Virus record (IMG/VR): IMGVR_UViG_2667527898_000012
Location: 1-4,205 of that record
Strand: one strand, 5' to 3'
Source of the DNA: a virus
Lineage: Duplodnaviria > Heunggongvirae > Uroviricota > Caudoviricetes
Length of the DNA stretch: 4,205 nt
Shown here in pieces: positions 1-4,205 of this stretch. A program made the translations under genes and the position numbers. Position 1 is the stretch's first letter. Each line of letters opens with the position of its first letter. Below the pieces are notes generated by a model, which was not told the DNA's origin, did not search any database, and saw nothing but the letters and a program-made list of their open reading frames with translations.

Positions 1-2712
1 GGCAATATAAAGGCGTCCGTCCTGCATCTTCTGCAGCTTCACCGCCCACATGCTGTTCAGGTCATTACGGGTGTCCGTCTGCACACGCTGGATTTGCTGT
101 ATGGTGGCGCTCTGGTCCTCCAGCGTTTTACTGACCGTCTGTGTGATTTCATTGCGGGTTTCGGTGATGGTGGTCTGCATTTCCGCCATCTCGTCCTTCA
201 GCTGACTGTTGTCAATCTCTGCCCACAGCGCCTCTGCCAGATGCGTTTTTCCTATCTTTTCCCGGAAAAGTTCCAGATAGCCCGCAGCATCATTGCTCGC
301 CCGTCCACTGGCTTCCACAAAAGCAGATTTACCCACCAGGTTGACGCTGCGCACATAAAACCAGAAATCCTTTCCGGGCTTAATGTGCGGACCGGAGACA
401 CTCCACTGACTGCCGGTCCCCAGATAACGGGCAGAGGTTTCCACCTGTGCGGCGTCTGCAATTTTTGCCTCCGAAAACCAGAACTCAAACTGCACCGTCG
501 GGTCATAAATGGTCAGTTTCGGGACTGCCGTTATCTGAAAATACCCCGGCGTCAGTTCAACACCGGCAGGCGCTGCCGGTGCGTTAATCCGGAACGTGGT
601 GGTGGCGGGTTCGCCCTGCTGGCCATAGCTGTTAATCGCCCTGACCGTCAGGGTGTATTCCCCGAGAGGCAGGCCACTGAAACGGTGCTCCGTATCGGCA
701 GTGATGGCGGTGGTCAGCAGGCGGCTGTTCTCACCGCTTCCACTGGTCAGGCGCAGACTGAAGCGCACGCCCTTCACCACCCTCGGCGTGTCCCATTTCG
801 CCAGCGCCAGATACTGGCTGTCAGCTGCGCTCACCTCCACCGTCAGGTGCTGCACTGCCGGTGGGATAACGCTGTTCAGGGTGCCTGACTGCGGCTCAAA
901 GCGGGCTCCGTTATCCACAATGGCTTCTTTTTCCGGTACGTGCTGCACTGCCGTGATGGCAAAGGTGCCGTCCGTGTTTTCCCGGATGGAGACACAGCGG
1001 AACAGGCGACGGCGCAGTGACGGCAGGGAGAGTCCCCACACCCCGTATGTCTCCACACCATCAGGCAGGGTACTGACCTGTATCCGGTCCGGCGCGGGGT
1101 GTGCGGTGATGTCCACACTCACCGGCTTACCGCTGCCGTTAATCAGGTTCACCGTCGATGTACCTGTCCCCGGAAGTGTCACTTCACGGTCCAGCGTCAG
1201 GGTGCGGGTGGCAGCATCAATGGACAGGACACGTCCGCCGGTCAGGGTTCCGGCATAGTCGTTATCACAGATTTCAATGATGTCACCGGGTGTGTGCCGC
1301 AGCCCCTGTGACCCGAGTGTGAAATCCACCGTCTGCGTTTCCAGCAGTTCTGTCTTTATCACCCACAGCCCGGCACGGTGGGCCTGACCGCGACTGGTGC
1401 AGCCGAACGCATCCATCTTCAGCAGGTTGCGTCCGTAGCGCAGTATGGCTTCCGGGTCTTCCACCAGTTCCGTGGAGGTCTGCCAGCCGTTCTGCGGGTC
1501 GGTGTAATTCACCTCCACCGCCGTGTGCCGGTCCTTCAGGGCACTGAAGCTGTAGCGGAACCCCACGCCGTTATCATCCACCACCACATCGCTGTTCGTG
1601 TACGGCCACACCACATCCGACTGGCGGTCCTGAACGAACGTCAGCGTCTGGCCGTTCCATACCGGCATACAGCGCATCGCCGAGCAGAAATCACTGAGAA
1701 CGTCCCACGCCTTACGCTGTTGTGCCAGGTACGCATTAAAGGTCATCCGCGGCTCTGTGCCCCCGAAACCATCCGGGACCGTCTGGTCGCAGTACTGCCC
1801 GATGGCATACAGCGCCCACTTGTCCACATCCGCCGCCCCCAGACGTTTTCCCATGCCGTAGCGCGGGTGAGTCAGCATGTCCCACAGACACCAGGCCGGA
1901 TTGTTACTGTATGCCGGTTTCAGACTGCCGTCCCAGATACCACTGTACGTGCGTTTTTCCGGGTCATAGTTTGACGGCACCTGGATGATGCGACCGCGGA
2001 TATGGTAGTTCACCGTCATCTGCTGGCCGCCGAACTGCTCCGCATCCACCTGCAGCCCCACAATGGCCGTGTTCGGGTAGCACTGTTTCACATCGATAAT
2101 TTCGGTGTATGACGACCAGAGCGTCTTATTCTGCAGCTGGTCCGTGGTGCTGTCCGCCGTCTCCCTGACCATCCGGATGTTAAAAGGACGGGGAGGCAGA
2201 TTATCCAGAATCACCGACGCCAGAAACTGCGAGGTGGTCTTGCCGTTAATGGTGACATCCTTTTCCGTCATCCATTTACCACCACGCTCAAGCTGAATCA
2301 GCAGGCGGACAGACGTCGGGTTACGGTCACCCTTTGACGTGGTCTGCACCAGTGACTGCACCCCGAAGGTCACCCGCAGGCGGTCAATGTTCGCGGACGT
2401 AATGGTGCGCGTCACCGGTTTTGCCTTCGTCACTTCCACGCCCAGTACAGTTTCAGCTCCGGAGGACTCAAAGCCTTCCGGTGGTGTCTGCTCCTGCTCC
2501 CCGGCGCGCCAGACCGCCGTCACACCGTGTATCACGGGATTACCGTCCGTGTCCGTCAGCGGGGTTTTGTTCACCAGGATACTCTGCAGTCCCTTCACCG
2601 GGCCTTCTGTCGGTCCCTCACCAACCGCATCAGTCACGCTCATCATCTGCGTGGATTTGAGATTATCCTTCGCCTCACGAGGCGTGTGTGCTTTCCCTCC
2701 ACTTTTTCCCAT
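1..2712 (-). CDS. J: Host specificity protein J / central tail fibre (tip attachment protein), N-terminal 904 codons; 3' end lies beyond the window start
   Basis: Hand translation of the reverse complement from ATG at 2712-2710 gives MGKSGGKAHTPREAKDNLKSTQMMSVTDAVGEGPTEGPVKGLQSILVNKTPLTDTDGN... and runs to position 1 with no stop (checked in consecutive 60-nt blocks; frame = codons ending at multiples of 3). The N-terminus and many internal blocks (e.g. NKTLWSSYTEIIDVKQCYPNTA, WCLWDMLTHPRYGMGKRLGAADVDKWALY, RCVSIRENTDGTFAITAVQHVPEKEAIVDNGA, TPGYFQITA...YDPTVQFEFWFSE) match what I recall of phage lambda J. SD-like GGGAAGG sits 4 nt upstream of the ATG. Absent from the ORF track only because no stop occurs in-window. 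Confidence 0.95.
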   Translation of the reverse strand, partial: MGKSGGKAHTPREAKDNLKSTQMMSVTDAVGEGPTEGPVKGLQSILVNKTPLTDTDGNPVIHGVTAVWRAGEQEQTPPEGFESSGAETVLGVEVTKAKPVTRTITSANIDRLRVTFGVQSLVQTTSKGDRNPTSVRLLIQLERGGKWMTEKDVTINGKTTSQFLASVILDNLPPRPFNIRMVRETADSTTDQLQNKTLWSSYTEIIDVKQCYPNTAIVGLQVDAEQFGGQQMTVNYHIRGRIIQVPSNYDPEKRTYSGIWDGSLKPAYSNNPAWCLWDMLTHPRYGMGKRLGAADVDKWALYAIGQYCDQTVPDGFGGTEPRMTFNAYLAQQRKAWDVLSDFCSAMRCMPVWNGQTLTFVQDRQSDVVWPYTNSDVVVDDNGVGFRYSFSALKDRHTAVEVNYTDPQNGWQTSTELVEDPEAILRYGRNLLKMDAFGCTSRGQAHRAGLWVIKTELLETQTVDFTLGSQGLRHTPGDIIEICDNDYAGTLTGGRVLSIDAATRTLTLDREVTLPGTGTSTVNLINGSGKPVSVDITAHPAPDRIQVSTLPDGVETYGVWGLSLPSLRRRLFRCVSIRENTDGTFAITAVQHVPEKEAIVDNGARFEPQSGTLNSVIPPAVQHLTVEVSAADSQYLALAKWDTPRVVKGVRFSLRLTSGSGENSRLLTTAITADTEHRFSGLPLGEYTLTVRAINSYGQQGEPATTTFRINAPAAPAGVELTPGYFQITAVPKLTIYDPTVQFEFWFSEAKIADAAQVETSARYLGTGSQWSVSGPHIKPGKDFWFYVRSVNLVGKSAFVEASGRASNDAAGYLELFREKIGKTHLAEALWAEIDNSQLKDEMAEMQTTITETRNEITQTVSKTLEDQSATIQQIQRVQTDTRNDLNSMWAVKLQKMQDGRLYIA

Positions 2713-2716
2713 CCAC

Positions 2717-2723
2717 CCTTCCC
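2717..2723 (-). promoter_or_regulatory. Shine-Dalgarno-like element GGGAAGG for J
   Basis: Minus-strand sequence CAGGGGAAGGGTGG precedes the J ATG; the purine-rich core ends 4 nt before the start codon (short but plausible spacing). Confidence 0.4.
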
Positions 2724-2815
2724 CTGAAAAAATTATCCGCCACTTGCCATTCCGTACAGAAGTCGGATATCCTTCGCCCGAAAAGCATGAAACACATTTC
2801 TGCCATGCTAAACAG

Positions 2816-2850
2816 AAACCCCGGTATCAGCAGATACCGGGGTTTTCTTT
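2816..2850. terminator. Perfect 13-bp hairpin AAACCCCGGTATC-AGCA-GATACCGGGGTTT flanked by A-tract and U-tract; candidate bidirectional intrinsic terminator
   Basis: Arms at 2816-2828 and 2833-2845 are exact reverse complements around a 4-nt loop. Downstream is TTTTCTTTC on the plus strand and TTTCTGTTT on the minus strand. Located about 100 nt upstream of the J start codon. Confidence 0.5.
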
Positions 2851-2917
2851 CATGCCAACCGATAATCCTGTTGGTTAAAACCGGTAATGGCATAAAAATT
2901 CTGAATATCTTCACATT

Positions 2918-2945
2918 TTCACACACTGACTGTGGCGCTTATAAT
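2918..2945 (+). promoter_or_regulatory. Candidate sigma70 promoter: -35 TTCACA (2918-2923), 16-bp spacer, -10 TATAAT (2940-2945); A/T-rich stretch upstream (2889-2910)
   Basis: Read directly: -35 matches consensus at 5 of 6 positions, -10 is a perfect TATAAT, spacing is 16 bp. It faces away from J and towards I, i.e. antisense to the tail operon. Predicted transcription start near 2951-2953. Confidence 0.5.
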
Positions 2946-2951
2946 TTCGCT

Positions 2952-3050
2952 GCGTTAGTGTTTTTTTGCCCGAGTAACAAAAACAACTCCTTAACATTAA
3001 TCTTCATTTGTCTGTCCCCGCAGCTCCGCGATCACTGCGGGATTTTTTTA
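2952..3050 (+). ncRNA. Putative prophage-encoded small RNA (about 100 nt) between promoter and intrinsic terminator; possible Hfq-type sRNA or anti-sRNA
   Basis: Promoter at 2918-2945 and terminator at 3017-3058 bracket about 100 nt with no ATG and no ribosome-binding site. A GTG at 2958 opens a frame but lacks an SD and the frame runs on through the terminator. The segment includes a U7 run (2961-2967), a CA-rich stretch AACAAAAACAAC (2976-2987, four consecutive A-R-N triplets), and a 3' GC hairpin plus U-tract. Coordinates of the 5' and 3' ends are estimates. Confidence 0.45.
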
Positions 3051-3058
3051 TTCTTTTT
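3017..3058 (+). terminator. Rho-independent terminator on the plus strand: stem CCCGCAG (3017-3023) / CTGCGGG (3035-3041), 11-nt loop, then ATTTTTTTATTCTTTTT
   Basis: Perfect 7-bp GC-rich inverted repeat immediately followed by a long T-tract on the plus strand only; on the minus strand the stem is preceded by A's and not followed by U's. The U-tract overlaps the stop codon of I (3057-3059). Confidence 0.6.
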
Positions 3059-3737
3059 ACCCCTGCCGCCCGATAACCACGACCTTTCCGCACCCGCCTT
3101 CATCACGGGTACTGATGTCCTGGGATATACGGCGGGAGCCAACCAGCATTTCCCCGTAAGGCACCGGCATCGGGTTACCCTGGGCAATCATGTTGTCCAG
3201 TGACGAAAAATACGTGTTCTGTCTGCCGTTATCCGTTGCGCGGTAATCCGGTGTTTTTGCCTTCGGGGCCAGCATCTGGGCCACACCACCCAGAATCATG
3301 CTGGCCCCCAGTGAAAACAGCATCGTGGTGGCAGAAAAACCGCCGGCACTCAGGGCTGTACCCCATAACGCCATCGAGGCACCGGCAGTGAGGAAAGAGC
3401 CCACGATGGCTGCCGCCCCCAGCACAATCTGAAGTCCGCCCTTTCCGGCCCCGGCCAGTCGCGGCACAATATGGATAACCGTTCCCTCACCCAGTGGTTC
3501 GTGAAGGCGGGCATACACCGCCTCCGGTGCCGTATCCTCACCGGCAATGCGTATCTGGTACCAGCCTTCGTTCATCTGACGGCGAAAGCCCGGCACCTGC
3601 AGCGACAGGGCGCGGATGGCTTCCGCCGCCGTGTTCACATACAGGCTGAAGCGGCGGCCAAATCGTTGTAAATCCCCGTGAAGGCAGATGCGTGCCAGTG
3701 GCGGTGACGCCAGACAGAATGCGTTCGTCGTTGCCAT
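3057..3737 (-). CDS. I: Tail assembly protein I (tail tip assembly), 226 aa
   Basis: ORF-track protein MATTNAFCLASPPLARICLHGDLQRFGRRF...GASMILGGVAQMLAPKAKTPDYRATDNGRQNTYFSSLDNMIAQGN...VVVIGRQG resembles lambda gpI as I recall it, including the Gly/Ala-rich hydrophobic central segment. Stop TAA at 3059-3057 confirmed by hand. Lies between K and J in the lambda gene order. Start at 3737 is inside the K reading frame. Confidence 0.93.
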   Translation of the reverse strand: MATTNAFCLASPPLARICLHGDLQRFGRRFSLYVNTAAEAIRALSLQVPGFRRQMNEGWYQIRIAGEDTAPEAVYARLHEPLGEGTVIHIVPRLAGAGKGGLQIVLGAAAIVGSFLTAGASMALWGTALSAGGFSATTMLFSLGASMILGGVAQMLAPKAKTPDYRATDNGRQNTYFSSLDNMIAQGNPMPVPYGEMLVGSRRISQDISTRDEGGCGKVVVIGRQG

Positions 3738-4205
3738 TTTTCGGAATACCTCTCCCGTTTACTCAGTTGTTCAGGCAGATGGTGAAGCAGTTCACCGTTG
3801 CCGCAGTAAATGGCGGCATGATTAGCCACCGATGCGCCGAAGCAGCACAGCAGGATATCGCCCGGCAGTGCAGAGGACAGGGGCACCCGGTAAAAGCCCG
3901 TTTCCTCCATATTGTCCAGGTAAAGGTTCTGACCGTTGCACCACCAGTCATCCTCACGGTGAAAATCCGGCATATCAATGCCTGCCAGATGGTATGCATC
4001 CCGGAACAGCGTGTAACAGTCCGTCACCCCGTGCGCAAAGCGCCGTCCCGTCAGGTGCGGAACGCAGCGGAATTTGTGAATGTCACCCCGGCTGACCAGC
4101 CACCAGGGCAGTGCGCTTTTTATCTGCAGCCGCCGGTCGGCCTCGCTCAGCCAGGGCAGTCCACCGGGATGACTGTGGACCAGTGCCACAATCTCCCCCT
4201 GCATC
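3635..4205 (-). CDS. K: Tail assembly protein K (MPN/JAMM metalloprotease-like plus NlpC/P60 cysteine peptidase-like domains); 5' end truncated by the window edge
   Basis: In-window protein contains the JAMM signature H-x-H-x7-S-x2-D (HSHPGGLPWLSEAD) followed by an NlpC/P60-like Cys...His...His arrangement (GVTDCYTLF ... ANHAAIY ... LLHHLP), the two-domain layout known for lambda gpK. The frame is open to the last base of the window, so the true start is upstream of 4205. It overlaps the I start by 103 nt in a different frame, which matches the lambda K/I overlap as I recall it. Confidence 0.9.
   Translation of the reverse strand, partial: MQGEIVALVHSHPGGLPWLSEADRRLQIKSALPWWLVSRGDIHKFRCVPHLTGRRFAHGVTDCYTLFRDAYHLAGIDMPDFHREDDWWCNGQNLYLDNMEETGFYRVPLSSALPGDILLCCFGASVANHAAIYCGNGELLHHLPEQLSKRERYSEKWQRRTHSVWRHRHWHASAFTGIYNDLAAASACM

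Follow-up and report, generated by a model that had tools for sequence, protein, structure and literature searches.

The perfect hairpin located between the tail genes I and J of a lambdoid prophage is probably an intrinsic (Rho-independent) terminator with a conserved role on the minus strand, i.e. the local allele of the punctuation that precedes J in lambda-like phages. Pre-J terminators are a known feature of lambdoid late operons, and comparison of sequences indicates that the hairpin is best read as an unusually long, bidirectional allele of this feature. It is real, strong and conserved, and most likely belongs to the ordinary equipment of these phages.

The analysis concerned a window of 4,205 nt (the whole stretch of DNA under study, positions 1 to 4,205 of IMG/VR record IMGVR_UViG_2667527898_000012), in which the lambdoid prophage tail genes K, I and J are all on the minus strand. 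On one side the hairpin is bordered by an antisense PasB cassette (a 'reverse moron'), on the other by the J ribosome-binding site. The genes and the parts of the hairpin are as follows:

4204-3635, minus strand: tail gene K, with an NlpC/P60 domain (Pfam), truncated by the end of the window
3737-3057, minus strand: tail assembly gene I (Lambda_tail_I, Pfam)
2713-3056: non-coding I-J spacer, 344 bp between the stop of I and the start of J
2816-2845: perfect inverted repeat, with arms 2816-2828 (AAACCCCGGTATC) and 2833-2845 (GATACCGGGGTTT) and loop 2829-2832
2819-2842: GC-closed core of the hairpin (CCCCGGUAUC/GAUACCGGGG)
2809-2818, minus strand: late-sense U-rich tail UUUCUGUUUA, 3' of the GC core, 7/10 U
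2843-2852, plus strand: plus-strand U-rich tail UUUUCUUUCA, 7/10 U
2712-2710, minus strand: start codon of J, with the Shine-Dalgarno-like run GGGGAAGGG just upstream
2712 to 1, minus strand: J coding sequence, with tip attachment protein J domains (Pfam), truncated by the end of the window

Genes I and K overlap by 103 nt (3635-3737), the same as in lambda; RefSeq annotations of relatives give a shorter I, which starts after K.

A repeat search of the window revealed a stem of 13 bp with 100% complementary arms and a 4-nt loop; among perfect inverted repeats with a short loop, it is the longest that the window contains. In 300 first-order Markov resamples a stem of this length never arose (the maximum was usually 7 bp and at most 12 bp). 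The fold is strongly stable on both strands: a 55-nt RNA around the hairpin has a free energy of -24.8 kcal/mol on the plus strand and -27.2 kcal/mol on the minus strand (z-scores of -6.3 and -5.5, respectively, equalled in 0 of 200 shuffles), and the GC-closed core alone accounts for -18.5 kcal/mol (plus) and -19.1 kcal/mol (minus). Repeat search, resampling and folding thus confirmed the perfect 13-bp hairpin of the preliminary description, which was also correct in calling it bidirectional (the tails are 7/10 U on either strand) and in placing it 100 nt upstream of J (the nearest arm is 103 nt from the J start).

The hairpin has the form of an intrinsic terminator, with a GC-rich stem in the range of approximately 5-14 bp, a short loop and a U-rich tract on the 3' side. 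It also has the placement of a pre-J terminator, since it stands between the stop of I (3057) and the start of J (2712), upstream of the J ribosome-binding site and with its U-tract in late sense. The U-tract is broken up (UUUCUGUUU), both tails (UUUCUGUUUA and UUUUCUUUCA) being interrupted; the late-sense tail of the majority allele is UUUCUCUUUA, where the window has UUUCUGUUUA. A simple terminator scan of the window did not include the hairpin among its sites. Judging from the stated rules of the scan, it was probably missed because the stem is extended through the A and U tracts, so that the tail is consumed.

The strand on which the hairpin acts is indicated by comparison with other phages. 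All the other spacer types examined, except those bearing sodC, carry an unrelated hairpin followed by a late-sense U-tract just before J, which in HK97 and N15 is annotated as a putative terminator; for this reason the late-sense strand is favoured. In the eight spacer types that were tabulated the late-sense tail always contains 7-8 U in 10 positions. The antisense tail contains 1-5 in seven of the eight, and is U-rich only in the allele of the window. The preliminary description considered that the role of the hairpin could not be decided from sequence, which appears too pessimistic, as the comparison points to the late-sense strand. Of the options that it offered, a minus-strand terminator within the K-I-J unit is the one favoured across spacer types; the Q read-through attached to this option is presumptive.

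In lambda, vB_EcoS-689R5, Gifsy-2, HK97, HK446 and N15, a GC hairpin with a tail of 7-8/10 U is found in late sense 10-25 nt before J, and the opposite-strand tails in lambda, Gifsy-2, HK97 and N15 contain 1-5/10 U. The 60-nt I-J gap of lambda (J02459) contains AACCGCC-UGCG-GGCGGUU and then UUGUCAUUUAU on the late strand. Lambda, Gifsy-2 and vB_EcoS-689R5 resemble the window in having a late-sense GC hairpin with a U-tract right before J, and differ from it in a weaker core (about -8 to -10 kcal/mol versus -19 kcal/mol) and in a spacer of only approximately 60-70 nt, without an sRNA cassette. The lambda hairpin (approximately 15465-15490, or 765-790 of our locus L133) is not annotated in record J02459.

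HK97, HK446 and N15 share the arrangement (A/G)GCCACC-loop-GGUGGCU, followed by six or seven U. At exactly these pre-J sites putative terminators are annotated in HK97 (NC_002167, 15107-15129) and N15 (NC_001901, 15307-15330), and both records contain several further putative terminators inside the late operon. A literature search for experimental tests of the two annotated pre-J terminators found none. The parallels with the window comprise (i) the I-J position, (ii) the late-sense strand, (iii) the GC stem with a short loop and a U-tract, (iv) a late operon under a Q-type antiterminator and, in HK97, (v) morons in the I-J spacer, one of them reverse (the spacer is annotated with a 'moron' and a 'reverse moron', the cargo being gp22/gp23). 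In contrast, there is no sequence similarity, the HK97 and N15 stems are of 7 bp and lie 10-12 nt from J (13 bp and 103 nt in the window), and these terminators are unidirectional, whereas the window hairpin has U-tracts on both strands.

The composition of the spacer itself was also compared among loci. Its remaining features in the window are:

2952-3049, plus strand: PasB sRNA; the published 83-nt form corresponds to approximately 2967-3049
stem 3017-3023/3035-3041 and U run 3043-3049, plus strand: PasB terminator, identified by folding
2918-2945, plus strand: PasB promoter TTCACA-16-TATAAT, 11/12 consensus matches, conserved in all spacer classes
2741-2891: J-proximal long module carrying the hairpin, near-invariant among loci, for which an unrelated short module substitutes in other prophages
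2744-2773, plus strand: promoter-like TTGCCA-18-TATCCT, 9/12 consensus matches, a candidate that would give an RNA of approximately 70 nt ending at the hairpin

The promoter and terminator of PasB are kept in all spacer classes, its body varies greatly, and the sequence next to J occurs in unrelated versions. Among 79 IMG/VR loci, defined by an I protein 96-99% identical to that of the window, 47 carry the long module, 29 the short one and three the gene sodC. The PasB cassette combines freely with two unrelated J-proximal modules.

The short class includes E2348/69 PP6, Sakai Sp15, Sakai Sp14 and the PhiR12 phages. Its module has no similarity to the long one, and its hairpin, CAGGCA[C/U]CC-UCCG-GG[G/A]UGCCUG, has UUGUUUUUG after it in late sense alone (the opposite-strand tail contains 2-4/10 U). 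These spacers resemble the window in having the PasB promoter on one side and J on the other, with a hairpin of late-sense terminator form. They differ from it in an unrelated sequence, a stem of 7-9 bp, a U-tract in late sense alone and a distance of approximately 37-45 nt from J. One position of the short-class stem alternates between C-G and U-A, and the commoner two wobble variants, which are U.G at positions 7 and 8 of the stem, form pairs in late-sense RNA alone. In total, 97.2% of the cells are paired, compared with 35-44% when the partners are slid. The covariation is weak, with one compensated pair and 37 of 500 shuffles as good; this test was limited to the short class because of the near-invariance of the long one. 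Taken over all these types, the common denominator suggests, at the level of sequence, a late-sense intrinsic terminator immediately before J that has been maintained through complete sequence turnover.

An effect of such a terminator can be envisaged as follows. Ordinary RNA polymerase moving in the late direction would pause on the U-tract, the GC stem would form and the transcript would be released before J. In lambdoid phages, polymerase modified by Q passes intrinsic terminators all along the late operon, so that the signal would do no harm during lytic growth and would act on the unmodified polymerase of a lysogen. Q-modified polymerase arriving from the late promoter would ignore it and J would be made in lytic growth, while in a lysogen stray late-sense transcription would be kept out of J and the downstream cargo genes. 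In the allele of the window, whose upstream A-tract mirrors the U-tract, the same stem could also halt plus-strand transcription out of J short of the PasB promoter. The sequences show the structure, its tails, its near-invariance and a position conserved among unrelated sequences; we infer the actual termination, the read-through under Q and the benefit to the lysogen.

J must be expressed across both kinds of spacer, since ASU11 (long spacer) and the PhiR12 series (short spacer) are viable. ASU11 is an Stx2 phage recovered by mitomycin C induction, which has the same long spacer and encodes Q (gp39c). Further late-sense terminator-like hairpins are present in ASU11 (our locus L217) after J (4570-4639), after lom (3906-3969) and after the major capsid gene (16683-16769); they resemble the many putative terminators annotated in the late operons of HK97 and N15. 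A search for transcript 3'-end or termination data for the long-spacer allele found none, the strains checked from the EHEC Hfq-CRAC and EPEC RIL-seq studies having short or sodC spacers at the prophages examined. The literature on 3'-end mapping inside lambdoid late operons likewise yielded nothing bearing on the hairpin site.

The virulent T1-like Klebsiella phage MassiveIgloo (Webervirus; 1783-1869 of our locus L224) has a strong GC hairpin followed by UUUUUGUCG between its I-like and J-like genes, which implies that pre-J punctuation is not confined to temperate, Q-using phages. Insulation of the lysogen cannot therefore be the sole or general reason for the positional conservation. The earlier proposal that the hairpin insulates J in a lysogen is not the whole story, and its rationale is presumptive.

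As lysogeny is irrelevant in a virulent phage, the same punctuation in MassiveIgloo would also fit a post-transcriptional role, in which the hairpin, as part of the read-through late mRNA, blocks 3'-to-5' exonucleases and thereby protects the tail mRNA upstream of it, or is itself processed, and so sets the ratio of J to the upstream products. Two further observations agree with this: the late-sense stem grows to approximately 19 pairs with the A and U tracts, and there is an analogy with P22, where the ant moron lies immediately 5' of the gene for the tailspike and is believed to influence the tailspike level (PMC2629481). Like the window, P22 has a variable inserted region with an antisense RNA directly before the gene for the receptor-binding protein, and this region is thought to affect the late transcripts reaching that gene (PMC2629481); it nevertheless belongs to another phage group, with other genes and no homology. 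A role in dosage control or mRNA stability within the read-through transcript is possible, but the combination of hairpin and U-tract is the form needed for termination, whereas a stability element needs no U-tract, and we regard a post-transcriptional function as the main explanation as improbable.

Of 5426 complete E. coli genomes, at least 1445 carry the long spacer. O157:H7, O26:H11 and ST131 strains are among them, the last represented for instance by 81009, and the spacer also occurs in Stx phages and in E. albertii. The long hairpin module stays near-identical even where the adjoining PasB body has strongly diverged, and the hairpin is perfect in nearly all long-class loci. This near-invariance could reflect recent spread instead of selection. 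A search for the hairpin in other genomic contexts found it only in the same context: the single GTDB species representative matching the hairpin word is E. albertii, with the same surroundings, and within ASU11 the word occurs at this site only. The second BLAST placement obtained for each phage record was rejected, as it is the palindrome matching itself.

Not every spacer carries the hairpin. The sodC-bearing spacers (Sakai Sp10 and three IMG/VR loci) are without a late-sense hairpin adjoining J, and in IMG/VR locus 2671180417_000014 (our L066) a natural 47-nt deletion between TTTCT direct repeats has removed exactly the hairpin (the equivalent of approximately 2802-2848 of the window). The hairpin is thus dispensable at least in a prophage. 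In Sakai Sp10 (8485-9335 of our locus L131) an antisense sodC with its own terminator occupies the I-J junction, and sodC is followed by a PasB-like remnant whose promoter is gone. The hairpin is not a leftover sodC terminator, as that of Sakai Sp10 differs in sequence. In another locus (L021) the long spacer is split by foreign DNA resembling an end of an IS3-family element, at the equivalent of approximately position 2866 of the window, which falls between the hairpin and the promoter of PasB.

The deletion and the sodC spacers without a hairpin, together with the status of the I-J junction as a hot spot for cargo (PasB, sodC and HK97 gp22/gp23), would be compatible with a relic that has no function and came in along with moron DNA, or with a palindrome acting at the DNA level as a protein-binding or recombination site. 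The probability of either seems low. In at least six spacer types, unrelated sequences supply a hairpin with a U-tract at this very position and in late sense; the variation of loop lengths and stem sequences speaks against a fixed protein-binding site, and the hairpin is perfect throughout nearly the entire long class.

The bidirectional form of the window hairpin raises the question of roles on the plus strand, where the tail (UUUUCUUUCA) is as U-rich as that of the minus strand. The promoter-like sequence at 2744-2773, to which the preliminary description drew attention, is indeed present. The main role could accordingly be to end an RNA of approximately 70 nt started at this site, or to stop antisense transcripts coming out of J, giving a second sRNA and/or a shield for the PasB promoter; we consider this unlikely. 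Such a role would agree with the folding of the 2775-2860 RNA into two hairpins (z = -5.6) and with the approximately 100 nt of extra near-invariant sequence that the long module has between J and the hairpin, absent from the short class. However, promoter-like sites are not enriched in the window (3 versus 1.4 +/- 1.1 in shuffles), so that of the proposed plus-strand roles the U-tract and the promoter-like match stand, the latter not above chance and with no further support. The other spacer types compared have no plus-strand U-tract, from which it follows that PasB generally needs no such shield. The U run is only four long and is then followed by C. Four U are short for an Hfq-type 3' end by the U-run lengths that Otaka et al. 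reportedly gave in 2011. No match was found in Rfam, and expression data were looked for and none were found.

A second plus-strand sRNA of approximately 70 nt, extending from about 2780 to about 2852, antisense to the J leader and in tandem with PasB, would make the hairpin a bidirectional terminator serving two units. This arrangement is rather unlikely: the putative RNA (approximately 2780-2852) belongs to no Rfam family, and the nearby Hfq-CRAC peaks EcOnc22/23 map to PasB-like RNA instead. The plus-strand U-tract, peculiar to this allele, may be a by-product of the upstream A-tract, or it may be used.

An ORF of 83 aa (2926-2675, minus strand) runs through the hairpin, and the GenBank record of ASU11 annotates a 66-aa version of it as the hypothetical protein gp9c (1494-1694 of our locus L001). 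It is, however, extremely improbable that the hairpin lies inside a real gene for a small protein. The ORF has no match in Pfam or PHROG and no convincing ribosome-binding site, overlaps the start of J, is not called in the RefSeq annotation of the same sequence and is absent from all the other spacer types (short, sodC, lambda, HK97 and N15). The gp9c of ASU11 is probably a spurious call.

With a late-sense terminator as the preferred reading, lambda-like phages have a fixed point of punctuation at the I-J junction, right before the receptor-binding gene J, a conclusion of modest importance. Cargo inserted at this junction (PasB, sodC and the HK97 morons) lies upstream of the pre-J terminator, and for work on PasB the hairpin defines the upstream border of the cassette. 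If in lysogens the terminator truly shields J, and with it lom, stf and the effector genes further downstream, its deletion should alter the expression of prophage cargo; the natural 47-nt deletion is an existing test allele for loss of the hairpin.

The neighbouring plus-strand sRNA is, by its sequence, PasB. The Northern probe AATCCCGCAGTGATCGCGGAGCT, designed for PasB of EPEC E2348/69 (PMC8550237, table S6), matches AGCTCCGCGATCACTGCGGGATT in the window (approximately 3022-3044) exactly when reverse-complemented, and the window aligns without gaps to the published PasB locus of this strain (NC_011601, 1466261-1466343). PasB is Hfq-dependent, has recently been surveyed across E. coli and is described as embedded in a phage structural gene operon (bioRxiv 10.64898/2026.05.13.724894). 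An Rfam search of the window gave no match at E <= 1, the PasB region included. AgvB, which Tree et al. placed downstream of the late promoter, was ruled out as the identity of the neighbour, as no Rfam AgvB match is present in the window. With its own promoter and terminator between two late genes, PasB resembles the lambdoid morons (Juhala et al. 2000, as cited in PMC4104026 and PMC2629481). Terminators at the borders of morons belong to the same concept. The hairpin, in contrast, is outside PasB, upstream of its promoter and on the other strand, and is hence not the terminator of PasB itself.

For the Hfq-CRAC peaks EcOnc22/23, a position on the hairpin of the short class results only when uncorrected 2014 coordinates are applied to the current Sakai record, and this placement was rejected. 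Calibration on AgvB1 gave a shift of approximately +137 to +146 between the Sakai genome versions (our own estimate). The shifted peaks map to PasB-like RNA in short-class spacers, in agreement with the Northern size of approximately 85 nt. Given this shift, the EHEC Hfq-CRAC sRNAs EcOnc22/23/24 (approximately 85 nt and destabilised without Hfq) appear to be PasB homologues residing in I-J spacers, namely those of Sakai Sp15 (1136-1228 of our locus L128) and Sakai Sp14 (L220). This equivalence was not found stated in the PasB literature. EcOnc33 and EcOnc54 (Sp6) are located at other morons.
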